Source: an uncultured Planctomycetales bacterium
Lineage (GTDB): Bacteria > Omnitrophota > Gorgyraeia > Gygaellales > Profunditerraquicolaceae
Direction of reading: 5' to 3'
Assembly: GCA_964545575.1 (NCBI GenBank)
Contig: CAZJFL010000009.1
Coordinates: 19,574-83,573 of the forward strand
DNA: 64,000 nucleotides
Made by a program: the position numbers and the translations under genes. Every line of letters starts with the position of its first letter. Within the stretch, counting starts at the first letter, position 1. Positions 448-40,321 of this stretch are shown one piece after another. The notes beneath the pieces are model-generated. The model was not told where the DNA came from. It did no database searches and was given only the letters and a program-made list of their open reading frames with translations.

Positions 448-458
448 CGGAGGTTAAT

Positions 459-1337: not shown

Positions 1338-1415
1338 AACCAGCCTCTGGCGTATTGGTTTTATTTCATCCCGAGCTTTTGCAGAGGGACTACCGAAATA
1401 AAAAGCGAGGATTAT

Positions 1416-5505: not shown

Positions 5506-5527
5506 ATGAAAGGGGGTGAAACAAAAT

Positions 5528-5767
5528 ATGGCAGAGAAAGTAATGAAACTGGGAATCAAGAGAGTGAAAGGTAGCCTCTATTACCTGGACAAGAAAGGCG
5601 ATGTTTCCTGCGCCAAGATGGCCAGAGGCAAGAAAAAAGGAGGTAGCCCGAAAAAGGTAGCCAAATGCGGTATCAAGAGGAAAAAGGGTTACCTTTATTT
5701 CATTGACAAGAAAGGCGATGTCTCCTGCGCCAAGATGAAAAGAGGCGGAAAGAGAAAGAAAAGATAA
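5528..5767 (+). CDS. Small Lys-rich protein built from two tandem copies of a ~33-aa repeat, G-I-K-R-x-K-G-x-L-Y-[YF]-x-D-K-K-G-D-V-S-C-A-K-M; function unknown
   Basis: The ORF is preceded by GGGGGTG. The internal duplication is evident in the translation. I cannot assign it to a named family with confidence. Confidence 0.55.
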   Translation: MAEKVMKLGIKRVKGSLYYLDKKGDVSCAKMARGKKKGGSPKKVAKCGIKRKKGYLYFIDKKGDVSCAKMKRGGKRKKR

Positions 5768-5853
5768 CCGTCTCTATCAAAAAAGTGAGCCCCTGTAAAA
5801 TGGCTTTATCTTTATTTTGCAGGGGCTAACTTTTCCGCTATAATTTTTACCCT

Positions 5854-6585
5854 ATGGAAGACAATATCATAATCAGAGGCGCTAAAGAGCATAACCTCAA
5901 AAATATAAATCTGAAGCTTCCCCGTAACAAGCTGATTGTAGTCACCGGGCTGTCCGGTTCCGGCAAGTCCAGCCTCGCCTTTGATACTATTTATGCCGAA
6001 GGCCAGCGCCGCTACGTGGAGAGCCTCTCTAGTTATGCCCGCCAGTTTCTGGAACAACTGCAGAAGCCCAATGTCGAATCCATAGAAGGCCTCTCTCCGG
6101 CAATCGCCATCGAGCAGAGGGCTGCGGGAGGAAATCCGCGTTCTACCGTTGCCACCCAGACAGAGATCTACGATTATCTGCGCCTGCTTTTTGCGCGTAT
6201 CGGAAGAGTAAGCTGCTATAAATGCGGCCAGCCGATAGAGCGCCAGAGCTCCCAGGAGATAGTAGGGCAGGTAATGCATCTTGCGCCGGGCACAGATATT
6301 CAGATATTAGCGCCGCTGGTCAGCGGAAGAAAAGGCGAATACCGCGAAATCTTCGGCTCAATTCAGAAATCCGGTTTTGTCAGGGTGCGCGTGGACGGCA
6401 AGATTCATGAACTGCCGGTTAAATTGAAACTGGCAAAATACAAAATCCACAATATTGAAGTGGTGGTAGACAGGCTCACCGTAAAACCAGAGATCAAAAA
6501 AAGGCTTACCGACTCGATAGAGACCGCCCTTAAAGTAGGCAAGGGCACCGTGATTGTGGCATATCGCATATCGCATATCGCATAA
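5854..6585 (+). CDS. uvrA: Excinuclease ABC subunit A, N-terminal fragment; ends at an in-frame TAA (6583-6585)
   Basis: It has the [28 protein letters not shown] Walker A region of UvrA. The next ORF continues UvrA in the same reading frame. Confidence 0.8.
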
Positions 6586-6631
6586 CGCAAAACAGAAAAT
6601 GCGATTAGCGATAAGCGATTAGCGATAAGCG
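6561..6631 (+). repeat. Short tandem repeat insert inside uvrA: three copies of ATATCGC, then GCGATTAGCGATAAGCGATTAGCGATAAGCG, which is roughly the inverted complement. The insert carries the in-frame stop.
   Basis: Seen directly in the sequence. Confidence 0.8.
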
Positions 6632-6633
6632 AA

Positions 6634-8700
6634 ATGATATTCAGCGAGCAATACGCCTGCGCCAAATGCGGTATTAATTACTCGGAGGTAGAGCCGCGTA
6701 TTTTTTCCTTTAATTCTCCTTATGGCGCTTGCCCCGAATGTAACGGCCTGGGCACAAAATTTGAGTTTGACCCGGATTTAGTGGTGCCGGATAAATTCAA
6801 ATCCATCAATGCCGGCGCCATCGAGGCCTGGAAACGCGGAGGGCGGGGCTACATTCTTTATTACCGCTGGCTGATCAGGGAATTGGCAGCGGCGCTTAAT
6901 TTTGATTTAGATGCGCCGTTTAAGGTCTTAAGCAAGGAAATCCAGCGCGCCATACTTTACGGTACGGATGAAGAAGTCAACGGCAAGCCTTTTGAAGGGG
7001 TAATCCCGCACCTGGAGAGATTATTCCGCCAGACGAAAAGCGACTATCTAAAAGAGGAGATTTCCCGCTTTATGTCCAGCCTCCCCTGTCCTGCCTGCAA
7101 AGGCGCGCGCTTGAAAAAAGAGAGCCTTGCCGTTACCGTTGGCGCTAAAAATATCTGGCGTCTCGCGCAGATGTCGGTAAAAGAGAGTTACGAGTTTTTC
7201 GAAAGTATTAAATTAAACGAAAGAGAAAAGCTTATTGCGCACGACGTATTAAAAGAGATTATCCGTAAGCTAAAGTTCTGCATAGATGTGGGCCTTAATT
7301 ATCTGACTTTGGACCGCCGGAGCTCGACGCTTTCCGGAGGCGAAGCTCAGAGAATCCGCCTGGCAACGCAGGTGGGCTCGGGATTAGTCGGCGTATTATA
7401 CATTCTGGATGAACCCAGCATCGGCCTGCATCAGAGAGACAACGCCAAATTAATCAACACGCTTCTAACCTTGCGCGACTTAGGCAATACCTTAATTGTG
7501 GTGGAACATGACGAATACACTATCCGCGCCGCAGATTATATCGTGGACTTAGGCCCTGCTGCCGGAAGGCACGGCGGAGAGATCGTTTTTGCCGGATGGC
7601 AGAAGGATTTATTGGCGCAAAAAAGTTCTCTCACTGCAAAGTACCTGCGCGGGGAGCTTAAGATAGAAGTACCTAAAATACGCCGGCCCTGGAAAGAGAA
7701 AAAATATTTAGAGATAAAAGGAGCCGGAGAACATAATCTTAAAAGTATAGATGTAAAGTTCCCCTTAGGAACGTTTATCTGCGTTACCGGAGTGTCCGGT
7801 TCAGGAAAGTCTACGTTAATTGATGAGATACTTTACCGGGGCCTGGCCCAGAAGCTGTATAAATCCAAGGATAAGCCGGGAGCGCACAAAAAAATACAGG
7901 GCGTCGAGAATATCGATAAGGTCATTGTAGTTGACCAGTCGCCGATAGGCAGGACCCCGCGCTCGAATCCGGCGACTTACACCGGAGTATTTAGCCAGAT
8001 CAGGGATATTTTTAGCCGCTTGCCCGAGGCAAGGCAGCGCGGTTATAAAGCCGGCAGGTTCTCTTTCAATCTTAAAGGCGGACGCTGCGAGGCCTGTCAG
8101 GGAGACGGGATCAAAAAAATCGAGATGCATTTTCTGCCGGATGTCTACGTCAAATGCGATGTCTGCAGAGGCGAACGTTTCAACGAAGCAACTCTGGAAG
8201 TAAAATACAAGGGTAAGTCTATCGCTAGCGTTCTGGATATGACAGTTGAGGAGGCGCTCGGCCTTTTCCAGAATATCCCCCGGATAAAAAATATTCTCCG
8301 CACACTTTATGATGTGGGCTTAGGTTATATTCAGTTAGGGCAGTTCGCCACCACCTTATCGGGAGGCGAGGCGCAGAGAGTAAAGCTATCTTCGGAATTA
8401 AGCAAGCGCGCAACCGGAAAGACCCTCTATATTCTGGATGAGCCGACCACGGGTCTACATTTTGCAGACGTGGAAAAACTGCTTGCGGTGCTGCAGAGAT
8501 TGGTGGATAAAGGTAATACCGTGATTGTCATTGAACATAACTTAGAAATAGTCAAATCCGCCGATTTTATTATAGACCTGGGGCCTGAAGGCGGAGACAG
8601 AGGCGGAGAGCTGGTGGCAAGCGGCAGCCCCGAGGATATTATTCAGAGCAGGCGTTCTTATACGGGTGAGGTTTTAAGAAACGTGTTGAAGAAGGATTAG
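6634..8700 (+). CDS. uvrA: Excinuclease ABC subunit A, remainder (zinc-finger region and second ABC domain), in the same frame as 5854-6585
   Basis: It contains [33 protein letters not shown], the UvrA zinc-finger region, a second Walker A ([11 protein letters not shown]) and the LSGGEAQR signature motifs. Confidence 0.85.
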
Positions 8701-8732: not shown

Positions 8733-11285
8733 ATGTATAAATCCGAAATCCGAATCCATAAATCCAAAACAAATCCAAAATCCAAAATCCAAAATCCAAA
8801 AAACAGAAAATTTTGGTTTTTGGTTATTGGATTATTGGTAATTGTTTGTAATTTGGCACCTGGTGCTTTGAACTTTAATTCATACGCCTATGCCCAGGGC
8901 GCCAAGGAAGAAGAAGCGCTTTTTATCGCCAAGAAGGCCTTTGAAGACGGTTTTTATGATGTCAGCCTCGGGCTTCTGGAGCGCTTCTTAAGGAATTACC
9001 CCAATACCGCAAAAATTCAGGAAGTAAATCTTCTCATCGGAAGGTGTTATTTCCAGCAGGGCAGGTTTCTGGACGCCCTGAATAAATTCGAGGAATTGCT
9101 AAACCAGCCCCAGGCTAAGAATATAAAAGACGCGGTTATTTACTGGATTGCCGAAGTACATTTCCGCGGCAATAACTTCAGCAAATCCGCTTCTTACTAC
9201 AAAATGATTATCGATGATTTCCCCGTTTCTGCGTATGCGGTTTCCGCTTACTATTCTTTAGGCTGGTGTTTATTCCAGGAGCGTAAGTTCGACGAAGCCC
9301 TCAGGTTTTTTAAGGCTACAGAGGAAAAGTTCCCCAAAGAGCCGCTGGCGCAGGACGCCTCTTTTAAGATAATTGAATGCCTTTATAATTTAAAAGATTA
9401 CTCCGGCATAAAGGAGAGGATTAAATTGTATCTAAAGATATACGCCAAGGACCCGGATAAACTTTATTACCTCTATTTTTACCTGGCGGAAGCGGATTAC
9501 TACCTGAATAATTTCCAGGAGGCTATCGACGAGTACGCCAAGGTCATTGTAAACAGCCGCGACGAGAAAACTCAAGGGCTATCCCGGCTCGGCACGGGCT
9601 GGGCTTTTTTGAAATTAAAGCGTTATCAGGAGGCAGAAAACACCTTCGCCGGCATTAAAGCCGAAACCCTTGAGAAGGCCAGTCGAGATGCGCTGTATCT
9701 GGGCAAAGCGATATTAATGGCTGAAACTAAAAGGTTCGATGAAGCCAAAGGCGCCTACGCCGCATTACTGGCCACTACCGAAGACCCGGTAGTTTTAATC
9801 CAGGCTTATATCGGCAGAGCCGATGCCTTTTATAATCTGGCCGACTATCAGGAGGCAATCGCAGTATATAAAGAAGCTGCGCAGAAAATATCGGGATCCG
9901 TTCCACAGGAGGTCGCCGATAAATTACACTACGGCCTGGCCTGGGCGCTTTTGAAAGAGGGTGAGTTTAAGGAGGCGATAGACGAATTCCAGAAGATCGC
10001 CAAACATACGGAAGATAAGATTATCAAAGTAAGCGTCCTCTGCCAGATCGGAGATACCTATCAGGATTCCGGCGATTACGCCAAGGCCGCCGAGTCCTAC
10101 GATGTCATCTTAAAAGATTATCCTGACAGTTTATACAGCGATTACGTCCAGTATCAGCTGGGCATTACGTTACTGAAAGCCTCTAAATATGACGGGGCGA
10201 TCCTGGCCTTCCAGAATCTTAAGGCCAAGTTCCCCGATTCTAAATTGCTGGATGATGCCTCCTACGCTTTAGGCTTATCTTATTTCCAGAGGGAGGATTA
10301 TAATGCCAGTAAAGAAATCTTTGAGAAGTTTACCCAGGAATATAAGGATGGCAGTTTAACGCCGCAGGCGACTTATCTATTGGGGACCAGTTTCTATAAC
10401 CTGGGAAAATATGCCGAGGCCATAGAGGTATTTAAGAATATTATCCGGATGTACGGCCAGGATGAAGAGCTCGTCCAGAAGGCAGAATACGAAATAGCCG
10501 ATTGCTATTACCAGCTGGGCAATGAGCAGGAATCCCTGAACAGGTTTAAGACACTGCGTTCTAAATACCCGGATTCTAAACTTACCCCGGAGGTAATCTG
10601 GTGGCTGGGCGAATATTATTACCGGCGTAATGAGCTAAGCATTGCGCGCCGGTATTTTACTTCCCTGATCCAGGATTTTCCCAAGAGCGCTCTGACCGCG
10701 TCGAGTTTCTACGCCGTAGGCTCTACTTACGCGGAGGAGTCTAATTATCAGGAGGCGATAAATAATTTCCAGAAAGTCATGGAGTTGGATAAGGCAGACC
10801 TTGCGGGGCAGGCAGGGGTGGCCATGGGAGATATCTACCTTAAGCAGGAGAAGCCGGATTTAGCGCTTGGGGCTTATAAGGATGCCGTGGCAGAACACGC
10901 AAATCTGGATAACCTGGTCTATCCTAAAATCGCGGATGTCTATAGCAAGCTGGGCGATTATGACCAGGCGATTGATTTTTACGAGAAGGGTTTAGCGGTC
11001 GTGCCTTTGCGCCAGATGAGCGATATCCAGTTTAAGATAGCCGAAGCCCGTCAGGCTAAAGGCGCGCTCGCGGAGGCTATCGAGGACTATTTGAAGGCGA
11101 CCTACCTTTATGCGGATAATAATGATCTGACCGTCAAAGCCCTGTTAAGAGTAGCGGCGATTTATGAGAATAAAGAAAACTTTAAAGAGGCGCTGAATAT
11201 TTATAAGCGCATTGCCGCGATGAATGTAGAAGAGGCAAAATACGCGCGCGAGCGCATGGACTGGATCAGAGTAAATATAAAATGA
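8733..11285 (+). CDS. Large TPR-repeat protein with an N-terminal signal or transmembrane segment (YbgF/CpoB-like tetratricopeptide repeats)
   Basis: 850 aa. Repeated A-x-x-x-Y...G-x-Y-x-x-A TPR-like units run through the whole protein. It lies upstream of the exbB/exbD/tonB-like genes. Confidence 0.7.
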   Translation: MYKSEIRIHKSKTNPKSKIQNPKNRKFWFLVIGLLVIVCNLAPGALNFNSYAYAQGAKEEEALFIAKKAFEDGFYDVSLGLLERFLRNYPNTAKIQEVNLLIGRCYFQQGRFLDALNKFEELLNQPQAKNIKDAVIYWIAEVHFRGNNFSKSASYYKMIIDDFPVSAYAVSAYYSLGWCLFQERKFDEALRFFKATEEKFPKEPLAQDASFKIIECLYNLKDYSGIKERIKLYLKIYAKDPDKLYYLYFYLAEADYYLNNFQEAIDEYAKVIVNSRDEKTQGLSRLGTGWAFLKLKRYQEAENTFAGIKAETLEKASRDALYLGKAILMAETKRFDEAKGAYAALLATTEDPVVLIQAYIGRADAFYNLADYQEAIAVYKEAAQKISGSVPQEVADKLHYGLAWALLKEGEFKEAIDEFQKIAKHTEDKIIKVSVLCQIGDTYQDSGDYAKAAESYDVILKDYPDSLYSDYVQYQLGITLLKASKYDGAILAFQNLKAKFPDSKLLDDASYALGLSYFQREDYNASKEIFEKFTQEYKDGSLTPQATYLLGTSFYNLGKYAEAIEVFKNIIRMYGQDEELVQKAEYEIADCYYQLGNEQESLNRFKTLRSKYPDSKLTPEVIWWLGEYYYRRNELSIARRYFTSLIQDFPKSALTASSFYAVGSTYAEESNYQEAINNFQKVMELDKADLAGQAGVAMGDIYLKQEKPDLALGAYKDAVAEHANLDNLVYPKIADVYSKLGDYDQAIDFYEKGLAVVPLRQMSDIQFKIAEARQAKGALAEAIEDYLKATYLYADNNDLTVKALLRVAAIYENKENFKEALNIYKRIAAMNVEEAKYARERMDWIRVNIK
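8739..8838 (+). repeat. Hexamer microsatellite of AAATCC-like units followed by its inverted complement (TTTTGGTTTTTGG...)
   Basis: Seen in sequence. The repeat encodes the low-complexity N-terminus KSKTNPKSKIQNPKNRK and the start of the transmembrane helix. Confidence 0.6.
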
Positions 11286-11297
11286 GGATCAAATTTG

Positions 11298-11460
11298 CTC
11301 CGTTGCCCGGAATTATAACGTAAGGCAACGGAGTTAATTCGCGGACGCCCGCCGCAAAGATTGGCGGGCTACAACTTACATTCGCTTGCCGCAGAAGCGG
11401 CACACCGGCTGTTCCAATACAGCCGGGTGTTTCGCTCTGTAAGTTGTCCGCTCATTAAAA
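11298..11460 (+). promoter_or_regulatory. Structured 5' leader, copy B, of the same multi-stem element as 5408-5505. Stem 1 pairs ctccgttgcc with ggcaacggag. It is followed by TTAATTCGCG, a stem pairing ACAACTTAC with GTAAGTTGT around variable hairpins, then CCGCTCATTAAAA and GGAGG.
   Basis: Both stems carry compensatory changes relative to copy A. It sits directly upstream of exbB. Confidence 0.55.
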
Positions 11461-11470
11461 GGAGGATTAC

Positions 11471-12103
11471 ATGGATCTTTATAAGATGAGTCTATGGCAG
11501 GTGTTTTCAGCGGGCGGGCCGGTAATGTGGCCGATACTTTTATGTTCTATTTTTGCTCTGGCGATAATAATCGAGAAGTCCTGGCACTTGCACAGGATAA
11601 AGATAGACATGCAGGAATTCCTGCGTAATATCCTCGATAATATGAAGAGGCATCAGACTAAAGAGGCGTTACAGATTTGCGAAGCCACCAAGAGCCCTAT
11701 CGCCCATATTTTGAAGGCGGGAATTTTAAAATACGACCGCACGCGCGACCAGATCAAAGAAGCGATAGAAGACGCTTCTTTATATGAAATACCGCGCTTA
11801 GAGAAAAATCTTACGGCCCTGGCTACCATTGCGCATGTCTCTCCGCTTTTGGGGCTTTTAGGAACAGTGACCGGAATGGTCAGGGCCTTTCAGGTCATCC
11901 AGGCTAAAGCCACCAGTTTCCATCCGGTTTCTCCCGGAGACCTCGCCGGCGGCATCTGGGAAGCTTTGATTACTACGGTAGCAGGTTTAATTGTAGCCAT
12001 ACCGACATTCGTTGCCTATAACTATCTGGTCAGCCGCATCAATAATTTCGTATTAGAGATGGAGAAGGCGGCTACGGAATTAGTCAATTTTCTGACGGAG
12101 TAG
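11471..12103 (+). CDS. exbB: MotA/TolQ/ExbB proton-channel protein
   Basis: 210 aa with three transmembrane segments and the conserved LGLLGTVTGM region. It is followed by exbD. Confidence 0.8.
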   Translation: MDLYKMSLWQVFSAGGPVMWPILLCSIFALAIIIEKSWHLHRIKIDMQEFLRNILDNMKRHQTKEALQICEATKSPIAHILKAGILKYDRTRDQIKEAIEDASLYEIPRLEKNLTALATIAHVSPLLGLLGTVTGMVRAFQVIQAKATSFHPVSPGDLAGGIWEALITTVAGLIVAIPTFVAYNYLVSRINNFVLEMEKAATELVNFLTE

Positions 12104-14717: not shown

Positions 14718-15884
14718 ATGAAAAATGTAATTTCTAAAAAAGTAATGGAGATGCAACCTTCCGGGATCAGGGCCTTCTTTGACCTGGTGCTCGGAATGAA
14801 GGATGTCATCTCCCTGGGCGTAGGAGAGCCGGATTTTGTCACCCCCTGGCAGATACGCGAGGCAGGGATTTATTCTCTGGAAGAGGGTTTTACCTCTTAC
14901 ACCTCCAATAAGGGGCTCTATAAATTACGTTTAAGTATATCCCGTTACTTAAAAAATAGATACGGTTTGGAATATTGCCCCGATGAAGAAATCCTGATTA
15001 CCGTGGGCGTCAGCGAAGGCTTTGATCTTACCTTGCGCGCGCTGATCAACCCCGGCGATAAAATATTGATCCCTGAGCCCTGCTATGTTTCTTACGGGCC
15101 GCTGGTAGATTTAGCAGGGGGGATGCCGGTCTATATAGATACGCGCGATGAGGATTTTAAGATTACGCCCGGCAAAATTAAAAAGTTCATTGATAAGAAA
15201 ACCAAGGGGATCATCCTGAATTATCCTACCAACCCCACGGGAGTTTCTTATACCAGAAAAGAACTGGAGGCGATTAATAAAACCGCTCTTCAGCATAAAT
15301 TAATCGTAATATCCGACGAGATATACGGGGACCTGACTTACGACTTTGAACATACGCCGTTTCCTACGCTTAGCGGCGCCAGGAATAATACCGTCTATCT
15401 TAACGGATTTTCCAAGAGCTATGCCATGACCGGCTGGCGCGTGGGTTTTGTCTGCGGCAATAAGGATATCATCGCCGCGATGACTAAGATCCACCAGTAT
15501 ACTATCATGTGCGTTCCGATTACTTCGCAAATGGCAGCTTGCGAGGCTTTGCAGGCAGGGCGTAAATCAGTAGAAGAGATGAAGCGCGAATATAGAAGGC
15601 GCCGGGAGCTGATCATAACAGGGCTAAATGGATTAGGTTTAGAATGTAAAACTCCCGAAGGCGCATTCTATGCTTTCGTAAACATCAGAAAAACCGGGCT
15701 TAGCTCGCTTGCCTTTGCGCAAAAATTGCTTAAAGAACAGAAAGTAGCGGTTGTCCCGGGGACTGCTTTCGGCAGGGGTTACGATGATTATCTGCGCATC
15801 TCGTATGCTTCTAGTACCGATAACCTGAAAGAAGCTTTAAACAGGATAGAGGTTTTCTTAAAATCAATCCGGAGGAAAAAATGA
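14718..15884 (+). CDS. Class I/II PLP-dependent aminotransferase (aspartate/aromatic aminotransferase family)
   Basis: 388 aa with GEPDF near the N-terminus and the SKSYAMTGWR PLP-lysine motif. Confidence 0.8.
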   Translation: MKNVISKKVMEMQPSGIRAFFDLVLGMKDVISLGVGEPDFVTPWQIREAGIYSLEEGFTSYTSNKGLYKLRLSISRYLKNRYGLEYCPDEEILITVGVSEGFDLTLRALINPGDKILIPEPCYVSYGPLVDLAGGMPVYIDTRDEDFKITPGKIKKFIDKKTKGIILNYPTNPTGVSYTRKELEAINKTALQHKLIVISDEIYGDLTYDFEHTPFPTLSGARNNTVYLNGFSKSYAMTGWRVGFVCGNKDIIAAMTKIHQYTIMCVPITSQMAACEALQAGRKSVEEMKREYRRRRELIITGLNGLGLECKTPEGAFYAFVNIRKTGLSSLAFAQKLLKEQKVAVVPGTAFGRGYDDYLRISYASSTDNLKEALNRIEVFLKSIRRKK

Positions 15885-17218
15885 GCAAGGCAAAGCCAAA
15901 AACGGCATCTGAGTTGATGAAATTAGTAAAAGAAAAAAAGGTTAGATACATCAGGCTTTGGTTTACCGATGTGCTGGGTTTCTTAAAAGGTTTTACCATC
16001 ACCATTAATGAACTGCCTCGTGCCTTAGAAGACGGGATGGGGTTTGACGGCTCATCAATCGAGGGTTTTGCGCGGATCGAGGAATCGGATATGATCGCCA
16101 GGCCCGATATCAGGACCTTTGCAATACTGCCCTGGGAGTCAAAGGATGAGCCTGTGGCGAGGATGTTCTGCGATATCTACAAGCCCGACGGCAGGCCCTT
16201 TGAAGCCGATCCCAGATATGTCTTGAAGAAAAATTTAGAGCGTGCCAAGAAACTAGGCTTTATTTATTACGTGGGGCCTGAGCTGGAATACTTTTATTTC
16301 AACAACCCCAAGAATACAATTATTCTGGATAAAGGCGGATATTTTGATCTTACGCCGCTAGATGTAGCGCAGAGCGTCAGGAACGAAACCGTTTCCAGCC
16401 TCGAAGACTTAGGGATTATCGTCGAATACAGCCATCATGAAGTCGCCTCCAGCCAGCATGAAATCGACTTAAGATACAGCGATGCGCTCTCCATGGCAGA
16501 TAACGTCATGACCTATAGATTAGTAGCCAAAGAAATTGCCCAGGCAAAGGGCCTGCACGCCAGCTTTATGCCCAAACCGGTCTTTGGGATTAACGGTTCG
16601 GGAATGCATACGCATCAGTCTTTGTTTAAAGGTTCAGCTAATGCCTTCTTCGAGAAAGGCGGACAATACCATCTTTCCAAGGTTGCGCAGCAGTTTATCG
16701 CCGGGCTGCTGAAGCACGCGGTGGAGATAACTTCGGTGACCAATCAGTGGGTCAACTCTTACAAGCGTCTTGTCCCCGGATATGAAGCGCCGGTTTATAT
16801 CTGCTGGGCGCAGATGAACCGTTCGGCGCTGATCCGCGTGCCGATGTATAAGCCGGGAAAAGAAAAAGCGACCCGTATTGAATACAGGTCTCCGGATCCG
16901 GCCTGTAACCCTTATTTGGCATTTTCGGTGATGTTAGCTGCCGGCCTGGAAGGCATTAAGAATAATTATAAGCTGACTGAGCCAGCCAATGACAATATCT
17001 ATCATATGGGCGAAGAGCAGCGGGACAGGGTCGGGATAAAATCGCTTCCCGAAGACCTGCTGGAGGCGATTAAAATTACCGAGAAAAGCAAATTAGTGCG
17101 GGAGTGCCTGGGGGATAAGGTGTTTGAGTATTTCATCCGTAATAAGAAGGTGGAATGGGATGAATATAAGGCGCAGGTCACCCAGTACGAAATAGACAGG
17201 TACCTGCCGATACTCTAG
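15881..17218 (+). CDS. glnA: Glutamine synthetase family protein (type I-like), copy 1
   Basis: 445 aa with a GS beta-grasp N-terminal domain and a catalytic domain (GPELEYF, NGSGMHTHQS, RVP). Confidence 0.8.
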   Translation: MSKAKPKTASELMKLVKEKKVRYIRLWFTDVLGFLKGFTITINELPRALEDGMGFDGSSIEGFARIEESDMIARPDIRTFAILPWESKDEPVARMFCDIYKPDGRPFEADPRYVLKKNLERAKKLGFIYYVGPELEYFYFNNPKNTIILDKGGYFDLTPLDVAQSVRNETVSSLEDLGIIVEYSHHEVASSQHEIDLRYSDALSMADNVMTYRLVAKEIAQAKGLHASFMPKPVFGINGSGMHTHQSLFKGSANAFFEKGGQYHLSKVAQQFIAGLLKHAVEITSVTNQWVNSYKRLVPGYEAPVYICWAQMNRSALIRVPMYKPGKEKATRIEYRSPDPACNPYLAFSVMLAAGLEGIKNNYKLTEPANDNIYHMGEEQRDRVGIKSLPEDLLEAIKITEKSKLVRECLGDKVFEYFIRNKKVEWDEYKAQVTQYEIDRYLPIL

Positions 17219-17229
17219 GGTTAAAGGCT

Positions 17230-17955
17230 GTGGCAAAAAAAGGCAAATATCAGATTTACATAAAACAGATAGAGGCCCTTTCCAAGATAGCAAACCTCAT
17301 CACTTCCGGACTGTACTTAGAAGAGCTGTTGCGCCTTATCGTGCAGGTCACCTCCGAAATTATGAACTCCAAAATTTCTTCTTTGATGCTGGTTGACCCG
17401 GACAAGAAAGAGCTGGTGATTAAGGCTACACAGTCTATTTCGGAGGCCTATAATAAGAAACCTAACCTTAAATTAGGGGAAGGGGTATCCGGTATAGTCG
17501 CCAAAGAAAATAAACCGATCTGCGTTCTGGATGTCAAAGAAGACAGCCGTTACTTAAACAGGGATGTAGCTAAAAAAGAGGGGTTATGTTCTTTAGCCAG
17601 CGTTCCTTTGGCGGTAAAGGGGAGGGTGATCGGGGTGCTTAATTGTTATACTTCTGCTAAGCATAAATTTAGTAAAAATGAACTGGATATCCTGACCGCT
17701 TTAGCTAACCAGGCGGCATTGGCTATAGAGAACGCGGAGTTAGATTTAAGGGTGCGCACTGCCGAAGAGGCCCTGACTACCCGTAAGCTTATCGACCGCG
17801 CAAAAGATGTCCTTTCGCGCGAGGCGAATATTCTGCCCTCTGAGGCCTACCGGTTGATTCAAAAACAAAGCATGGATAGCCGCAAATCCATGCGCGAGAT
17901 TGCCGAAGCGATAATTTTAACCAAAGATATCAAAGATAAGCAAAGAGAAAAATAA
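17230..17955 (+). CDS. GAF-ANTAR RNA-binding antiterminator regulator, copy 1
   Basis: It has an N-terminal GAF domain and the C-terminal ANTAR motif EALTTRKLIDRAKDVLSRE...SMREIAEAII. It lies directly downstream of glnA copy 1. Confidence 0.75.
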   Translation: MAKKGKYQIYIKQIEALSKIANLITSGLYLEELLRLIVQVTSEIMNSKISSLMLVDPDKKELVIKATQSISEAYNKKPNLKLGEGVSGIVAKENKPICVLDVKEDSRYLNRDVAKKEGLCSLASVPLAVKGRVIGVLNCYTSAKHKFSKNELDILTALANQAALAIENAELDLRVRTAEEALTTRKLIDRAKDVLSREANILPSEAYRLIQKQSMDSRKSMREIAEAIILTKDIKDKQREK

Positions 17956-21882: not shown

Positions 21883-22287
21883 ATGACTATTCTTAAGAAG
21901 ATACCTTCCAGCTTAGAGCTAGTCCACGGATTTATTTCCCGTTTTATGAAAGAAATAAGGATCCTTTCCTTGGGGCATAATGATATTTTTGATATAAAAT
22001 TGTCTCTGGAGGAAGCCCTGGTTAATGCCATAAAGCACGGCAATAAAATGGATCCCGGGGCGTTGGTAGAATTCCGGGCCGATATTGAAGACGGCAAACT
22101 GACCATGGAAGTGACAAACGCAGGCCCCGGTTTTGATTACCAGAGCATTCCCGACCCCACGGCGCTGGATAAATTGCAAAGGACTTCCGGCCGGGGGATA
22201 TTTTTGATTAAAAAGCTGATGGATAGGGTGGAGTTTTCTGATTGCGGGCGCACCATAAAAATGATAAAATTTATACATAAGGTTTAA
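21883..22287 (+). CDS. Anti-sigma-factor-type serine kinase (RsbW/SpoIIAB-like HATPase_c)
   Basis: It has the EEALVNAIKHGN (N-box) and TNAGPGFD (G-box) motifs. Confidence 0.75.
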   Translation: MTILKKIPSSLELVHGFISRFMKEIRILSLGHNDIFDIKLSLEEALVNAIKHGNKMDPGALVEFRADIEDGKLTMEVTNAGPGFDYQSIPDPTALDKLQRTSGRGIFLIKKLMDRVEFSDCGRTIKMIKFIHKV

Positions 22288-22427
22288 CACCCAATCTTAT
22301 AGGATAGATTGGTGTGCACTTACTGTGTAACACCCAAACATATAGGATTGTTTGGTATACACTAACTGTGTTAACGCCCGAACATATATGATTGTTCGGC
22401 GTACGCTTACTGCGTAAGGAGCTAAAA
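22286..22427 (+). repeat. Three tandem copies of a ~45-nt structured unit, with the unit boundaries falling at 22286-22328, 22329-22372 and 22373-22420. Each unit reads AAC-R-CCC, then a 7-bp stem, a TATNNGAT loop, the stem complement, and a small hairpin with a TTACT-type pentaloop. The last unit ends in AAGGAG, which serves as the ribosome-binding site for the STAS gene.
   Basis: The stem sequences differ between units but stay complementary: ccaatct/agattgg, ccaaaca/tgtttgg, ccgaaca/tgttcgg. Confidence 0.7.
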
Positions 22428-22760
22428 ATGAAGATAGCCCAAGAGAAACACAATGATGTAGTCGTCTGCATATTAGACGGCGAGATCGATATCAATACTT
22501 CTCCTGAATTAAGAAAGGCCTGCGAGGTGCTCAGCAAAAATAACGAGAAGAAGGTGCTCATGGATTTATCCGGAGTTACCTATATCGATAGCTCAGGGCT
22601 GGCTACGCTTATTGAGATGTTCCAGCGCCTTAAAAAGATAGGCGGGCGCCTGCGTTTAAGCAATTTAAACGAAAAAGTCAGGAATGTTTTTGAGATCACC
22701 AAGCTTTACAAATTATTCGAGATTTTCGATACGCGCGACAGCGCATTAAGGGAATTTTAA
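22428..22760 (+). CDS. STAS-domain protein (anti-sigma-factor antagonist RsbV/SpoIIAA-like; MlaB-like position)
   Basis: It has a DLSGVTYIDSSGL phosphorylatable-serine region. The 22392 start in the ORF track only translates the upstream repeat, so the true start is the ATG at 22428. Confidence 0.75.
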   Translation: MKIAQEKHNDVVVCILDGEIDINTSPELRKACEVLSKNNEKKVLMDLSGVTYIDSSGLATLIEMFQRLKKIGGRLRLSNLNEKVRNVFEITKLYKLFEIFDTRDSALREF

Positions 22761-28818: not shown

Positions 28819-28957
28819 AACACCCGGCCTTATACCCACCCCACCATATCGGAGTGATGGGTACGCCGCCTTCTGCGGCGGGATAGGCCGGTGTGCGCTT
28901 GCTGTCTAACACCCAATCTTATCGGATATATTGGTGTGCGCTTGCTGCGCAAGGAGG
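28819..28957 (+). repeat. Two copies of the same structured unit family. The first unit (28819-28907) carries a nested insertion inside its TATNNGAT loop, and that insertion itself resembles a mini-unit. The second unit (28908-28957) ends in AAGGAGG before the ATG at 28964.
   Basis: Seen in sequence. The outer stem cacccggcc/ggccggtgtg encloses ttata[insert]ggata. Confidence 0.65.
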
Positions 28958-31703: not shown

Positions 31704-31732
31704 GAGCGCAAGAAATAAAACTAAGTTAGTTA

Positions 31733-31826
31733 AGCGCCCGAACATATATGATTGTTCGGCGTGCGCTTACTGCGCTAACGCCCGAACATATCTGATTGTT
31801 CGGCGTGCGCTTACTGCGCAAGGAGG
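31733..31826 (+). repeat. Two tandem copies of the structured unit (31733-31776, 31777-31826). The second ends in AAGGAGG before the gdhA ATG at 31832.
   Basis: They are near-identical to the third unit at 22373-22420 (gcccgaaca, loop, tgttcggc, then gcgcttactgcgc). Confidence 0.7.
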
Positions 31827-33446: not shown

Positions 33447-34187
33447 ATGCGGCATAAACCTATGCAAAACACGCTTTTTGAAGAGCAGGTAAAGGCTTTA
33501 GTTAAGATCAGCAAGGCCATAGCTTCAGACCTCTATCTGGAGGATATTTTGCGCCTGATAGTTACCGTTACCGCGGAGGTGATGGGTTCGAATATTTGTT
33601 CGTTGATGCTGATTGACGAAAAGAAAAAAGAGCTGGTAATCAGGGCTACCCAGAGTGTCAGCGAAGAATATAATCAAAAGATACCTTTAAAGATAGGTGA
33701 AGGCATTGCCGGAAAGGTTGTGGCGCAGAATAAGCCGATTACGGTTAAGGATGTGACCAAAGAGAAAGAATATAAATATCAGGATATTGCCAGGAAAGAA
33801 GGGTTATGTTCGCTTCTTTGCGTACCTCTGGCGGTAAAAGGAAAACCTATAGGAGTATTGAATTGTTATACTTCTAAACCCCATGATTTTAGCGAAACCG
33901 AAATTGAGATATTGATGTCTATAGCCAATCAGGCGGCAGTGGCGATTGAGAATACGGAGTTGCTGGTAAAAAGTAAAATCATCCAGGAAGAGCTGGAGAC
34001 GCGCAAAAGAATAGAGCGCGCCAAGGGAATCATCATGCATGGCGAAGGGTTGACCGAAGAAGAGGCATATTTAAAGATCCGCAAATACAGTATGGATAAC
34101 CGCAAGACTATGCGCGAAGTTGCCGAAGCGATTATCCTGTCTGATGAGATGAAGAAATTAACAGGTAAAGCGGCCCCGCGCTCATAG
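33447..34187 (+). CDS. GAF-ANTAR RNA-binding antiterminator regulator, copy 2 (alternative ATG at 33462)
   Basis: It has a GAF domain and the C-terminal ANTAR motif EELETRKRIERAKGIIMHGEGLTEEEAYLKIRKYSMDNRKTMREVAEAIIL. It is a paralog of the 17230 gene. Confidence 0.75.
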   Translation: MRHKPMQNTLFEEQVKALVKISKAIASDLYLEDILRLIVTVTAEVMGSNICSLMLIDEKKKELVIRATQSVSEEYNQKIPLKIGEGIAGKVVAQNKPITVKDVTKEKEYKYQDIARKEGLCSLLCVPLAVKGKPIGVLNCYTSKPHDFSETEIEILMSIANQAAVAIENTELLVKSKIIQEELETRKRIERAKGIIMHGEGLTEEEAYLKIRKYSMDNRKTMREVAEAIILSDEMKKLTGKAAPRS

Positions 34188-34258: not shown

Positions 34259-35911
34259 ATGAATTTGCAAAGGCCGAACGCAAATGACGCGACTGGGACG
34301 TTTAACCGTTCCAAGAACGTGGTACCGGGTTCTGGTATCTGTTCTCGGTGTGTGGATGGGTGTAAAGGTAACTGCGAAGTCTTCAGGGCGACTTTCCGGA
34401 GCCGCGAGGTTATTTATCCGGGCCCTTTCGGAGAAGTAACTGCTGGAGCGGATAAGGATTATCCCGTGGATTACTCTCACCTAAATATCCAGGGCTATGC
34501 CTTGGGTGCTAAGGGTCTGCCGCAAGGCACAGAAGGTAATCCTGATACGACCAAATTCCCCGATGTGAATACCGAGGCCGAGTACGGCTGGAACTCAAAG
34601 GTAAAAATGAAAGTTCCTATTTTTACCGGAGCTTTGGGCTCAACGGAAATCGCCAGAAAAAACTGGGAGCATTTTGCCGTGGGTGCAGCAATTTCCGGCA
34701 TTACCCTGGTGTGTGGCGAAAATGTCTGCGGTATTGACCCCGGGCTGGAATTGGATAGTAACGGCAAGATCAAGAGTTCGCCCGACATGGACAGGCGTAT
34801 CGAGACTTATAAAAGGTTCCACAACGGCTGGGGAGAGATTTTGGTCCAGATGAACGTGGAAGATACGCGCTTGGGTGTTGCCGAATACGTCAGGAAGAAG
34901 CATAAACTTGACGCTATAGAGTTGAAATGGGGGCAGGGCGCTAAATGTATCGGCGGTGAGATAAAGGTAAAGAGCTTAGAAAGAGCTTTGGAATTACAGA
35001 GGCGCGGTTATATCGTTACTCCTGATCCCTCTCAAGAGGCGAACCAGAGAGCCTTTAAAGACGGCGCAATAAAAGAGTTTGAGCGCCATTCCCGCTTAGG
35101 GTTTGTTTCAGAAGAGGCATTTTTGGCAGAAGTCAAGCGCTTAAGAGGCTTAGGGTTCAAGCGTATTACCTTAAAGACCGGCGCTTATGCCATGCGCGAG
35201 CTGGCCATGGCGATAAAATATTGTTCCCTTGCCGGTATCGATCTTTTGACTATAGACGGTGCACCCGGCGGGACAGGAATGAGTCCTTGGAGGATGATGG
35301 AAGAATGGGGTATCCCTACCTTTTATCTGGAGGCGCTGGCCTATGAGTTCTGCCAGGAATTAGCCAAGAAAGGGATGCGTATTCCGGATATAGCCATAGC
35401 CGGAGGTTTTTCCAGCGAGGACCACGTTTTTAAAGCCTTAGCCATGGGCGCGCCATACGTCAAGGCAGTCTGTATGGGAAGATCCCTGATGATACCCGGC
35501 ATGGTGGGAAAGAATATTGCCAATTGGCTAAAAGAAGATAATCTTCCGCCTACCGTATCAGCTTACGGCAAGACAGAAAAAGAAATTTTTGTCTGTTACG
35601 AAGAGCTGCTTGAGCGATACGGCAAGGAGATGAAAGATATACCCTTGGGTGCGGTGGGGATATATTCTTTTGTGCAAAAGTTAAGGGTTGGTCTGCAGCA
35701 GCTGATGGCCGGTAGCAGGAACTTTAGGCTGAGCGCTATCTCCCGCAATGACCTGATGGCCTTGACGGAAGATGCGGCCAAGGTTTCAGGCATTCCTTAT
35801 GTAATGGATGCCTATCGCAAAGAAGCAGAGGCAATACTTAACGGTAAGGAAACAGTAAGGTTAGAAAACAATTTTAATCACCGTAGGGCCAAGGTAGCGG
35901 TGGGGAGGTAA
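34259..35911 (+). CDS. Stand-alone glutamate synthase FMN-binding domain protein (archaeal-type GltB domain 2) with an N-terminal Cys cluster
   Basis: 550 aa with the N-terminal CSRCVDGCKGNC motif and a TIM-barrel FMN domain with the GAPGGTG and IAGGF motifs typical of GltB-like proteins. Confidence 0.6.
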   Translation: MNLQRPNANDATGTFNRSKNVVPGSGICSRCVDGCKGNCEVFRATFRSREVIYPGPFGEVTAGADKDYPVDYSHLNIQGYALGAKGLPQGTEGNPDTTKFPDVNTEAEYGWNSKVKMKVPIFTGALGSTEIARKNWEHFAVGAAISGITLVCGENVCGIDPGLELDSNGKIKSSPDMDRRIETYKRFHNGWGEILVQMNVEDTRLGVAEYVRKKHKLDAIELKWGQGAKCIGGEIKVKSLERALELQRRGYIVTPDPSQEANQRAFKDGAIKEFERHSRLGFVSEEAFLAEVKRLRGLGFKRITLKTGAYAMRELAMAIKYCSLAGIDLLTIDGAPGGTGMSPWRMMEEWGIPTFYLEALAYEFCQELAKKGMRIPDIAIAGGFSSEDHVFKALAMGAPYVKAVCMGRSLMIPGMVGKNIANWLKEDNLPPTVSAYGKTEKEIFVCYEELLERYGKEMKDIPLGAVGIYSFVQKLRVGLQQLMAGSRNFRLSAISRNDLMALTEDAAKVSGIPYVMDAYRKEAEAILNGKETVRLENNFNHRRAKVAVGR

Positions 35912-36164: not shown

Positions 36165-36258
36165 AATGAGGGCACAATTTACGGAGCATAAGCGACGTAA
36201 ATTGTATGCCCGAATTAATCCCGCACTTACGCATAAGTGCGGGATAAGAGGTAGGCAG

Positions 36259-36786
36259 ATGACATTCGAGGTATTATTAAAAAGAATATCACCGAAGTTA
36301 AAGGGTATAGCCTATAAATTAAACGGCCGTTATTCTTTTTTTAATGACCAGGATTTATTTCAGGAAGCCTTACTGCACCTCTGGCAGGAGTTTGGGGCAG
36401 GAAAATTAGAGGATAAGACCGATAGCTATATCCTGCAGGGCTGCTATTTTCATCTTAAAAACTATATCCGTAAGACAAATACAAGAAGCAAGGTAGTGAG
36501 CCTCCAGGCGTTTATCGATAATGAAGAGGACTTAAAATTAGAAGAGACGCTATTATTGCAGGACTGTGATCCCCAAGATTATTTCGATTCCTTAAACAGT
36601 AAATTATTGGTAGAAACTATCCACAATAACGGTTTTACGGAAAGAGAAAAGAATATACTTACGCTATATGCGGAAGGACTTACTACCAGAGAGATCGGTT
36701 CCAGGCTTGGGGTTTCGCATGTCAGAGTGGTTAAGCTAATGAGCCGCATCAGAGAGAAGTCAAAAATTTATCTGGATAATTTTTAA
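36259..36786 (+). CDS. Sigma-70 family RNA polymerase sigma factor (ECF-like, regions 2 and 4)
   Basis: Region 2-like FQEALLHLWQ and a C-terminal helix-turn-helix LTTREIGSRLGVSHVRVVKLMSRIR. The start is chosen at ATG 36259 because the 36166 start runs through terminator and hairpin sequence. Confidence 0.5.
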   Translation: MTFEVLLKRISPKLKGIAYKLNGRYSFFNDQDLFQEALLHLWQEFGAGKLEDKTDSYILQGCYFHLKNYIRKTNTRSKVVSLQAFIDNEEDLKLEETLLLQDCDPQDYFDSLNSKLLVETIHNNGFTEREKNILTLYAEGLTTREIGSRLGVSHVRVVKLMSRIREKSKIYLDNF

Positions 36787-36813
36787 ACAGGCGTTACCAA
36801 AACAATCGGTTTT

Positions 36814-36945
36814 CCACTTGTAGTGGTATAAGGCACATTGAAGTGTAGCCGGATAAAGGCGTCTTTTGCCCAGCAAGGGCACACCAAACAATCCGATATG
36901 TTTGGGTGTTTCCAGCGTTGGGTTAGCGGACGCTTTTTTGTTTTT
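36814..36945 (+). promoter_or_regulatory. amtB leader. It has hairpins ccac-ttgta-gtgg and gcac[ATTGAA]gtgt (a hexaloop with A at position 1 and G at position 4), a long hairpin acaccaaaca-atccgata-tgtttgggtgt that resembles the repeat-unit stem, and then a terminator (agcgt...acgct plus UUUUUGUUUUU) just before the ribosome-binding site and ATG.
   Basis: Seen in sequence. The hexaloop hairpin is nearly identical to the first hairpin of the glnA copy 2 leader (gcac[ATTGTA]gtgc). Confidence 0.45.
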
Positions 36946-36952
36946 AGGAGGG

Positions 36953-38188
36953 ATGAAAATGATGAATAGCGGTGATACTGCTTGGGTCTTGGTTTCATCG
37001 GCTTTAGTCCTGCTGATGACTCCTGGCCTGGCATTCTTTTACGGAGGGATGGTTAGGAAGAAAAACGTTTTGAGTGTTTTAATGCAGTGTTTCATTATTA
37101 TGTGCGTTTTAAGTATCCAGTGGGTACTCTTTGGCTACAGCCTTTCGTTTCATCCGGGAAACGGATTCTGGGGCGGTTTTGGATGGTTGGGTTTAAACGG
37201 TGTGGGCTTTGAGCCTTACGCAGATTACGCGGCTACTATTCCGCATCAGGCATTTATGATCTTTCAGGCGATGTTTGCGATTATCACACCCGCATTGATT
37301 ATCGGCGCATTTGCTGAGAGGATGAAGTTTTCCGCATTTTTGTTATTTACGGTGCTTTGGGCGACGTTTGTATACGATCCTTTATGTCACTGGGTCTGGG
37401 GCACGGGAGGATTTTTAAAGAATTTAGGCGCGCTTGATTTTGCCGGTGGAACAGTGGTACATATTAATGCCGGGATTGCTGCTTTGGTCACGGCGATAGT
37501 CCTAGGCAAGAGATCAAACTTAAACGGAAATGTGCCTACTCCGCACAACATGCCTTTGGTGGTCTTAGGTACAGGATTATTATGGTTTGGTTGGTTTGGT
37601 TTTAATGCCGGAAGCGCTCTTGCTGCCAATGGGTTAGCGGTAAACGCATTTGTCGTAACCAATACCGCAGCTGCCGCGGCAGGATTAAGTTGGGCTTTGA
37701 TTGAGTGGTGGCGTAACGGCAAGCCTACGATTTTCGGCTTATGTTCCGGAGCTGTCGCAGGCCTCGTTGCAATTACGCCTGCTGCCGGATTTGTAGGTGT
37801 TATACCGGCGATAATCATCGGCCTATTAGTCAGCGTTTTCTGCTTTATTGCGGTAACGCTGATTAAGCCGAAATTCGGTTATGATGATTCGCTGGATGCC
37901 TTTGGAGTGCACTGCATAGGCGGTATCTGGGGAGCTTTGGCTACCGGGCTGTTTGCTTCTAAGGTAATAAATTCCGCCGGCAGCGATGGGCTATTTTTCG
38001 GCAACCCGAAGCAGTTTTTAGTGCAGCTGGCAGCCGTAGCAGTGACGATTATCTACACGGGAGTCGTTACATTGATTATCTATAAACTCGTAGACGTGTT
38101 CGTGGGTATACGGGTTGATGAAAAATCAGAGGCAATGGGGTTAGATTTGACGCAGCATCATGAAAGGGCGTATACGGTATTGGAGTAA
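36953..38188 (+). CDS. amtB: Ammonium transporter
   Basis: It has the Amt signature near the N-terminus (DTAWVLVSSALVLLMTPGLAFFYGG), 11 transmembrane segments and DFAGGTVVHI. GGAGGG lies 8 nt upstream of ATG 36953. Confidence 0.9.
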   Translation: MKMMNSGDTAWVLVSSALVLLMTPGLAFFYGGMVRKKNVLSVLMQCFIIMCVLSIQWVLFGYSLSFHPGNGFWGGFGWLGLNGVGFEPYADYAATIPHQAFMIFQAMFAIITPALIIGAFAERMKFSAFLLFTVLWATFVYDPLCHWVWGTGGFLKNLGALDFAGGTVVHINAGIAALVTAIVLGKRSNLNGNVPTPHNMPLVVLGTGLLWFGWFGFNAGSALAANGLAVNAFVVTNTAAAAAGLSWALIEWWRNGKPTIFGLCSGAVAGLVAITPAAGFVGVIPAIIIGLLVSVFCFIAVTLIKPKFGYDDSLDAFGVHCIGGIWGALATGLFASKVINSAGSDGLFFGNPKQFLVQLAAVAVTIIYTGVVTLIIYKLVDVFVGIRVDEKSEAMGLDLTQHHERAYTVLE

Positions 38189-40239: not shown

Positions 40240-40321
40240 GGGACTGTCCCCTTAGGTCTACGGGAAGGCACCCAAACCTATCTGATGGTTTGGTGCCCCG
40301 CTTTCTGCGGGGACTGTCCCT
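40240..40321 (+). promoter_or_regulatory. A single copy of the structured repeat unit (ggcacccaaacc-tatctgat-ggtttggtgcc, then ccccgc-tttct-gcgggg, 40267-40312), flanked by two copies of the perfect palindrome GGGACTGTCCC (40240-40251, 40309-40320)
   Basis: Seen in sequence, about 50 nt upstream of the Fis-like/gltB operon start. Confidence 0.5.

Follow-up and report, generated by a model that had tools for sequence, protein, structure and literature searches.

A structured repeat docked at Shine-Dalgarno sequences across the Omnitrophota, possibly related in kind to mobile hairpin repeats

The MIRU repeats of mycobacteria are 40-100 bp long, form head-to-tail arrays of variable copy number between the cistrons of operons, and follow the orientation of the genes whose stop and start signals they touch. 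Correia/NEMIS and ERIC repeats are small, non-autonomous and co-transcribed; their hairpins alter mRNA processing or stability, and their insertion polymorphism changes expression. Palindrome-associated elements derived from IS200/IS605 carry hairpins with an extrahelical base, insert seamlessly and without duplication in a fixed orientation beside a short target, and may recreate that target at one end. The REP/REPIN repeats of Proteobacteria, paired with RAYT transposases, are short imperfect extragenic palindromes in many copies; complementarity is kept while sequence varies, gain and loss are clean, and many repeats are transcribed, with effects on mRNA ends, and cluster close to terminators. 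REP sequences carry an unpaired GTAG or CGTC tag at one end of the palindrome and lie mainly downstream of open reading frames (ORFs) (PMC3733652). In marine Beggiatoaceae, TAACTGA repeats occur in 2-6 copies a few nucleotides upstream of the start codons of functionally unrelated genes, and a post-transcriptional regulator (S1, Csp or CsrA) has been proposed to act there (PMC4679880). Here we describe a repeat unit of ~44 nt found in a 64-kb stretch of an uncultured Omnitrophota bacterium (contig CAZJFL010000009.1; hereafter the window) and across that phylum, where it stands singly or in tandem and at most sites directly against a Shine-Dalgarno (SD) sequence. In its behaviour the unit appears closest to REP/REPIN and IS200/IS605-derived hairpin elements. 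With the former it appears to share the features listed before the tag; with the latter it shares an extrahelical base and seamless sites without duplication, and it may share a fixed orientation beside a short target and an end that recreates the target. Its arrays are like those of MIRU, its placement is like that of the TAACTGA repeats, and like Correia/NEMIS and ERIC repeats it would be small, non-autonomous and co-transcribed.

The unit is ~43-44 nt long and consists of hairpin 1 stacked on hairpin 2, ending in AA. Hairpin 1 spans ~29 nt; its stem of 10 bp is interrupted by a bulged C (ACAC-C-CNNNNN / NNNNNG-GTGT), and its loop reads (U/A)AUNNGAU. The stem of hairpin 2 is 4-6 bp long, with the loop CUUNCU(G). 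In the consensus, the 5’ flank reads (T)A-ACACCC and the 3’ flank GGTGT-GCNC. The stems are those described in the original prediction, a reading of the window made from its letters, and prove longer than described there. This anatomy differs from that of MIRU, which are not hairpin pairs with covarying stems, carry small coupling ORFs and are restricted to mycobacteria, and from that of the genus-restricted Correia/NEMIS and ERIC repeats, which measure 100-155 bp, have terminal inverted repeats (and, in Correia, a TA duplication) and do not dock at SD sequences. The TAACTGA repeats are unstructured heptamers that often replace the canonical SD, whereas the unit is a structured 44-nt element beside a canonical AAGGAGG.

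We tested the structure ..(((.(((((((........))))))))))((((......))))..... on an alignment (A2) of 70 distinct copies from the window and other genomes. Standard pairing was present in 93.7% of cells, against 25-40% when the 3’ partners were slid by 1-3 columns; both-sided changes were seen at 12 of the 14 pairs, and the observed covariation score was reached by 0 of 500 shuffles. Pairs 3-31, 4-30, 5-29, 32-45 and 34-43 were free of the selection filter, yet they covaried too. More than 20 distinct upper-stem variants were each fully complementary, and stems were complementary in matches confirmed by a covariance model built from these 70 copies although the search pattern had left them free. 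Conservation is concentrated in the loops and the lower stem, covariation in the upper stem. The earlier argument from covariation to selection on a hairpin was correct; covariation alone cannot separate an RNA hairpin from a single-stranded-DNA hairpin. G.U pairs in the stems (n = 23) showed no clear excess over A.C mismatches (n = 17), near-equal counts that are unlike those of long-selected RNA helices. The three-unit array upstream of the STAS gene folds as predicted, and does so autonomously (z = -4.6). Within arrays, the member next to the SD is usually the one nearest to the consensus by score.

A pattern scan of one genome per species, with the stems left free and ~9 chance matches expected by our own calculation, returned 61 loci. 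The covariance model confirmed 57 of these, which hold 82 units in 41 assemblies and are labelled Omnitrophota/Omnitrophica (44), ‘Planctomycetales’ (8), unclassified (4) and ‘Patescibacteria group’ (1). Four pattern matches in clearly unrelated taxa failed the covariance model and are therefore attributed to chance; viral contigs gave no match to the unit pattern. Because the confirmed loci fall in 41 assemblies and the matches in unrelated taxa fail, we conclude that the family is restricted to the Omnitrophota and widespread there. Identical stem subfamilies recur in different species. A literature search found no description of an Omnitrophota RNA motif or repeat matching the unit.

Grouping the matches gave 76 independent sites. 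At 48 of them (63%) the unit is fused in sense to an SD: an (A)AGGAGG-like sequence follows hairpin 2 directly, with the start codon 5-13 nt past the SD core. At two further sites (L056 and L065; other loci are likewise cited by our handles) the unit adjoins an SD in antisense. Elsewhere, units precede terminators, occupy terminator loops or form ORF-less clusters, with an orientation close to random; about half of the units without SD fusion are antisense to the surrounding genes. Their 3’ flank is 72% purine in the first 8 nt and 44% in the next 8, and a T-A-A 5’ flank is present in only ~50-60% of copies. Upstream of units we found sigma-70-like -10 boxes or a stop codon at variable distances, which would place the units inside 5’ untranslated regions (UTRs) and intercistronic spacers, and no conserved promoter or signal at a fixed upstream distance. 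A promoter role was rejected on that ground and because a sigma-54-like spacing within hairpin 2 is off by one.

The genes downstream of SD-fused units, identified by Pfam, are diverse. They include Hsp70/DnaK, GAPDH, ribosomal protein S1, Rho, CarB, PurB, PanD, AmtB and P-II; pyruvate formate-lyase, hybrid-cluster protein (Hcp), acyl-CoA dehydrogenase, RpoZ, ribonucleotide reductase and Skp; and CheY-like receivers, an MFS transporter, a GT2 glycosyltransferase, an L,D-transpeptidase (YkuD) and a PyrK-like protein. In the window the SD-fused genes are those for STAS, DUF4870 and GdhA. No one ligand or pathway would account for all of these genes. In native leaders the SD core was unpaired with a mean probability of 0.58; this fell to 0.49 when the unit was deleted (p = 0.02) and to 0.41 when it was shuffled (p = 7e-6). 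Sequestration of the SD, or a switch between hairpin 2 and the SD, was rejected, as only 3-4 bp are possible and these show no covariation. One of the SD-fused units, in L026, stands in front of a ribonucleotide reductase gene (2-1477, minus strand) that is broken by an intein with a LAGLIDADG domain.

Comparisons of orthologous leaders suggest that the family behaves as a mobile element. We compared 80 metagenomic loci (471 kb in total) encoding close GdhA relatives, in all of which the covariance model found a single match. About 12 of the closest loci read share the upstream gltD-like gene, and only L071 among them carries a unit. Locus L066 encodes a GdhA 97% identical to that of the window and has the same gene order; aligned with the window (76-89% nucleotide identity), it shows a break precisely around 31734-31819, the 86 nt that hold both gdhA units. 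The empty site of L066 reads ...GTCAA|AAGGAGG, with an intact SD and unchanged SD-to-ATG spacing, and the filled (window 31733|31820) and empty (L066 2988|2989) sites differ by an AA|AA split without target duplication. The DUF4870 site of L066 is likewise empty (...TTTTTAAC|AAAGGAGG). Three subfamilies occupy the same gdhA position: two units with a GAACA stem in the window, one unit with a CGGCT stem in L019, and a nested pair in L071. Compared with the window, units either fill a position that is empty there or belong to another subfamily at the DUF4870 gene in L023, at amtB and glnK in L057 and at the PyrK-like gene in L059. Near-identical units also occur at unlinked loci of the window (e.g., 22373 and 31733). 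Nested copies were found five times (window, L054, L011, L071 and L053), and units lie in the loops of terminator-like hairpins at 36863 and 40266 and in L055. In the unit-free relatives L067 and L069, a different small hairpin (GGATAAAGTTTATCC, ~2960-2990) stands directly against the gdhA SD, so that an SD-adjacent hairpin may be a general design in these genomes.

We put at roughly even odds (about 0.5) the reading that the units are a small, non-autonomous and structured mobile repeat of REP/MITE-like kind, which goes in at the 5’ edges of SD sequences and is co-transcribed as a leader. Copies would be gained and lost cleanly, with no detectable target duplication. Insertion would favour the 5’ border of purine-rich tracts, most of all the position between TAA/YAA and the GGAGG of an SD; the new 3’ end (..AA) would recreate the target, which would explain the head-to-tail arrays. 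Copies would also land in existing hairpin loops, both their own and those of terminators, and the hairpins themselves would be needed for propagation or recognition of the element. A sequence- and structure-specific protein would recognise the conserved loops, lower stem and bulge, and our favoured guess is a HUH/RAYT-like enzyme acting on single-stranded DNA. Zero spacing to the SD at ~50 sites, together with three independent occupations of one position, is hard to obtain by random insertion followed by selection, and from this we infer site specificity or precise, enzyme-mediated excision. The extrahelical base, the lack of duplication and the seamless empty sites make the resemblance to single-strand HUH systems a lead. 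Like IS200/IS605-derived elements, the units have a seamless junction; beside it lie a purine-rich 3’ flank and the partial T-A-A 5’ flank, and away from SDs both orientations occur. In contrast, at ~44 nt they are far shorter than known left-end plus right-end derivatives, their apparent target (purine tract or SD) lies 3’ where IS608-type elements have a conserved tetranucleotide 5’, and no TnpA was found in the sequence examined; any such mechanism for the units would be wholly inferred.

Once inserted, a unit would be transcribed within 5’ UTRs and intercistronic spacers. It would fold on itself and leave the SD single-stranded, providing a modular leader that may act as a 5’ hairpin stabiliser or context insulator, possibly also as a protein docking site, rather than as a sensor. 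Such a stabiliser or insulator role is plausible but modest. Some copies would have become fixed under purifying selection. The original prediction had offered a REP/MITE-like mobile palindrome that donates a ribosome-binding site as one of three candidate interpretations. The mobile palindrome is the best supported of the three, but it lacks the defining REP features, and the element does not donate the SD, because AAGGAGG, equally spaced, is already present in empty orthologous sites.

Several observations weigh against a mobile repeat. Part of the loop conservation in A2 was imposed by the search pattern, and the units keep one sequence and the same stem subfamilies over 41 species-level assemblies, which REP-type repeats do not usually do. 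By Pfam, neither the sizeable ORFs of the 64-kb window nor those beside solitary units included a transposase, RAYT or IS200-like gene; tblastn with IS200 TnpA, CsrA and Hfq queries gave no match in the ~0.9 Mb of Omnitrophota-related sequence examined, an uninformative test. Selection on RNA, rather than an insertion mechanism, could account for the near-absolute sense orientation at SDs. The filled and empty sites were compared between species, not strains, so ancestral presence followed by loss may also explain the empty sites. Finally, the antisense copy in the amtB leader is orthologous in the window, L019, L020 and L028, where it is nearly unchanged while the neighbouring proteins are 47-59% identical, and in L020 it shows an in-situ compensatory change from A-U to C-G. 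This conserved copy argues for function rather than selfish spread. Together with the recurring subfamilies and the small RNA (sRNA)-like ORF-less arrays, it keeps an RNA-binding regulator with decoys a serious rival.

That rival holds the unit to be a translational operator: a phylum-specific global RNA-binding protein would bind the hairpin pair beside the SD and gate ribosome access, ORF-less arrays would serve as decoy sRNAs, and the regulon would grow by duplication of the module. We regard it as less probable than the mobile repeat, with perhaps the weight of a second choice. The strict SD fusion in sense, the conserved loops and lower stem with a covarying upper stem, and the site conserved in situ with a compensatory change are all as expected of an operator, and the downstream genes are a mixed set with many highly expressed members, as are the targets of CsrA-type regulators. 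ORF-less arrays followed by terminators also fit: L006 and L042 each combine a conserved 130-nt domain, three units and a terminator, and L039 and L020 are similar. However, occupancy is not kept between the orthologues of close relatives, the same site holds different subfamilies in different lineages, the antisense half of the units without SD fusion includes the conserved amtB copy, G.U pairs are no more frequent than A.C mismatches, and no candidate protein was identified.

The ~130-nt region of L006 (2996-3128, plus strand) and L042 (6606-6432, minus strand) folds well and occurs twice in one metagenome-assembled genome (MAG), each time ahead of the tandem units and terminator. One of its copies carries an extra unit-like hairpin, neither copy has an Rfam match, and we consider the region a candidate sRNA.

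That the unit belongs to a previously undescribed type of element, either a mobile cassette homing to the 5’ edges of SDs or the operator of an Omnitrophota-wide post-transcriptional regulator with its own decoy sRNAs, is possible, although we hold it tentatively and would sooner doubt it than assert it. Under either mechanism the trans-acting partner would be a protein not yet tied to such a role, and a homing cassette would have rewired translation-initiation regions at dozens of core genes in a large part of the phylum. Omnitrophota are uncultivated and gene control there is almost unknown. A single 44-nt module at the ribosome-binding sites of dnaK, gap, rpsA, rho, carB, amtB, gdhA and others in 41 species-level genomes points either to a major lineage-wide layer of translational or mRNA-stability control or to a mobile element that prefers ribosome-binding sites in a way without precedent. 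On either reading, the covariance model and the clean filled/empty pairs can be used for phyletic profiling of partner proteins, and the unit is a practical marker for binning Omnitrophota contigs.

It is unlikely that the units are a bona fide REP/REPIN family mobilised by a RAYT (an IS200/IS605-like Y1 transposase) encoded elsewhere in each genome. The unit resembles such a family in its short imperfect palindrome with an extrahelical base (hairpin 1, ~29 nt, within the 20-40 bp of REP sequences), its exclusively extragenic location in many copies, its clean presence or absence without target duplication, and its clusters near terminators. Vertical persistence of REPIN-RAYT pairs over long times has also been documented (bioRxiv 10.1101/2021.07.10.451892). 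However, no GTAG or CGTC tag is present at either hairpin foot in any of the 70 aligned copies. REPs are found mainly downstream of ORFs, whereas most units lie upstream of genes and abut the SD in sense, as essentially one sequence in 41 species-level assemblies. The units have two stacked hairpins, and their arrays are direct, with a period of 43-44 nt, not inverted dimers of the BIME or REPIN kind. A RAYT-like ORF was not found in the sequence examined (the window, the neighbours of solitary units and ~0.9 Mb by tblastn). The original prediction had recognised no known riboswitch or REP family. Rfam scans gave no match for the unit, and tag, location and dimer form all separate it from REP. 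Nor does the unit fit a MITE derived from a DDE transposon, since the unit ends (ACACCC... and ...GYGC-AA) are not inverted repeats and there is no target-site duplication.

Less likely again is a CsrA/RsmA module in which one CsrA dimer bridges the GGA of loop 1 and the GGA of the SD, the second interpretation offered at the outset. Loops read NGGAU in 58 of 70 copies, the SD GGA is present in the SD-fused copies, and the two GGAs are ~26 nt apart, a spacing within the reported range for dual-site CsrA binding. Units share with CsrA-bound leaders and CsrB/RsmZ sponge RNAs the pairing of a hairpin-loop GGA with an SD GGA, heterogeneous targets, and ORF-less multi-repeat RNAs that end in a terminator. 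The reading is weakened by the 12 of 70 loops without GGA (UGAU or AGAU, among them both gdhA units and one STAS unit). In addition, CsrA sites have nothing that corresponds to the invariant UAU, the bulged C or the hairpin 2 loop, turnover resembles that of a mobile repeat, and no CsrA homologue was found in the ~0.9 Mb searched, a weak test.

The remaining interpretation, tandem ligand-sensing riboswitches (e.g., for glutamine or 2-oxoglutarate) controlling nitrogen-assimilation genes, is very improbable: several window units do lie in a nitrogen cluster (gdhA, amtB-glnK, glnA, gltBD) and units precede amtB and glnK in L057, but the small unit of two simple hairpins has no obvious pocket and no Rfam match, the SD is not sequestered in any predicted alternative fold, most downstream genes fall outside nitrogen metabolism and are so unrelated that a single-ligand riboswitch is unlikely, and the orthologous gdhA leaders of close relatives lack the unit and have hairpin-terminator attenuators instead. 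Tandem structured units before nitrogen genes are thus not necessarily riboswitches, a caution for annotation. An Rfam scan of the whole 64 kb at gathering scores brought no family to threshold, tRNA families included, and a permissive scan (E <= 10) of 22200-22460 gave chance-level matches only (E >= 0.8). At six loci with solitary units, Rfam returned only c-di-GMP riboswitches and a weak cspA match. Two c-di-GMP-I-type aptamers, both above gathering scores, lie in the Omnitrophota MAG of L039 (1466-1548 and 5643-5731, minus strand).

The hairpin-terminators of the relatives have the form AAAGACGYC...GRCGTCTTT followed by a T run. They occur upstream of gdhA in L072, L075, L076 and L079 (~2850-2990), in L020 (~4215-4290) and in the window (~36912-36945), and sit between a sigma-70-like promoter and gdhA, or before an amtB/porin operon. 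They look like nitrogen-regulated attenuators and could be ANTAR targets.

Three further RNA or DNA classes were rejected for the unit itself. ANTAR targets comprise two hexaloop hairpins (loop position 1 is A and position 4 is G), of which the second overlaps a terminator; GAF-ANTAR genes are nearby, but the loops of the unit have 8 nt (UAUNNGAU) and 5-7 nt (CUUNCUG), and no terminator overlaps the SD-fused copies. Integron attC sites pair R’’/R’ boxes (RYYYAAC ... GTTRRRY) at the hairpin base and lie 3’ of cassette ORFs, whereas the hairpin base of the unit is ACAC/GTGT and the flanking genes are core housekeeping genes. Type III toxin-antitoxin repeats are unsuited in anatomy or gene context.

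The window holds 11 units (Table 1). There are 8 exact matches to the core CCCN5TATNNGATN5GG, where dinucleotide shuffles give an expectation of 0.03, and an unfiltered covariance-model run returned 10 units at E <= 3e-5, all intergenic, with the best remaining match at E = 0.23. Eight or more copies in four places had been reported, and all are present where reported; the full count adds the nested unit and two minus-strand copies in two further places. The array before the DUF4870 gene (28819-28957) is real and has three units, one of them nested, rather than two. Fusion to a ribosome-binding site, claimed for the arrays, holds for the three gene-proximal ones, whose last unit ends in AAGGAG(G) 5-6 nt before the ATG, and not for the copy at 40266-40315. 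That copy sits inside a terminator-like hairpin, an architecture similar to that of L055. The unit at 36863-36911 precedes the amtB SD by ~35 nt and occupies the loop of a GCGTC...GACGC hairpin, after which comes a T run.

Table 1. Repeat units in the 64-kb window, with strand, surroundings and support (scores in bits from the covariance model).
Feature	Position	Strand	Surroundings	Support
Solitary unit	11384-11432	-	Between TPR gene (8733-11285) and tolQ/exbB (11471-12103), antisense to both	51.5 bits, E 4e-12; neighbours by Pfam
Unit 1 of three-unit array	22285-22333	+	First bases overlap TAA stop (22285-22287) of HATPase_c_2 anti-sigma-kinase-like gene	63.3 bits; Pfam
Unit 2 of three-unit array, most degenerate copy	22334-22371	+		25.9 bits; hairpin 1 seen in predicted fold
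Unit 3 of three-unit array	22372-22420	+	Fused to SD AAGGAG (22416-22421); STAS ATG 22428	65.4 bits; STAS/MlaE/ABC/MlaD by Pfam
Composite element	28819-28906	+	Outer unit (28819-28834 + 28881-28906) interrupted in loop TATA|GGAT	Sequence reading; nested hairpins in predicted fold
Inner unit of composite, complete but degenerate	28834-28883	+		38.4 bits
SD-proximal unit before DUF4870 gene	28907-28955	+	Fused to AAGGAGG (28951-28957); ATG 28964	66.3 bits; Pfam DUF4870
Distal unit of gdhA array	31732-31775	+	Within 86-nt segment 31734-31819 missing from relative L066	51.6 bits
SD-proximal gdhA unit	31776-31824	+	Fused to AAGGAGG (31820-31826); gdhA ATG 31832	69 bits; Pfam ELFV_dehydrog
Antisense unit in amtB leader	36863-36911	-	Between ECF-sigma-like gene (36166-36786) and amtB (start ~36953-36962)	69.4 bits
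Unit after glnA stop (40234)	40266-40315	+	Flanked by repeat GGGACTGTCCC (40240-40250, 40310-40320) and T-rich stretch; not SD-fused	48.8 bits

Pfam assignments show the window to be ordinary chromosome, with dapA/dapB, uvrA, tolQR, two glutamine synthetases, two GAF-ANTAR regulators, STAS/Mla genes and gdhA; amtB-glnK, gltBD, pyrG, carAB, lpxB and a gene for a beta-CASP RNase are also present. An Omnitrophota MAG in which the neighbourhood is the same encodes a GdhA 86% identical to the window protein, and ENA metagenome contigs encode a protein identical to the latter.

Between the ECF-sigma-like gene and the antisense unit of the amtB leader, conserved blocks CACTTCnATGTG, CACTACAAGT, TTGGTAAC and TTATCCAGATA are found in the window (36787-36862), L019 (174-248) and L028 (5067-5233) and may serve the amtB region as operators or promoter elements. 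The GAF-ANTAR genes lie at 17230-17955, beside a glutamine-synthetase-like gene (15881-17218), and at 33447-34187, between gdhA and a GltS-like gene (34259-35911), and share a 60-nt stretch that is 78% identical. Within 5516-8700, the UvrA gene is apparently split into ORFs 5854-6585 and 6634-8700; the small ORF ahead of them (5516-5767) contains a 93-nt duplication (75% identical). Short AAATCC(R)-type repeats occupy 8739-8801, at the extreme 5’ end of the gene for an 850-residue TPR protein.

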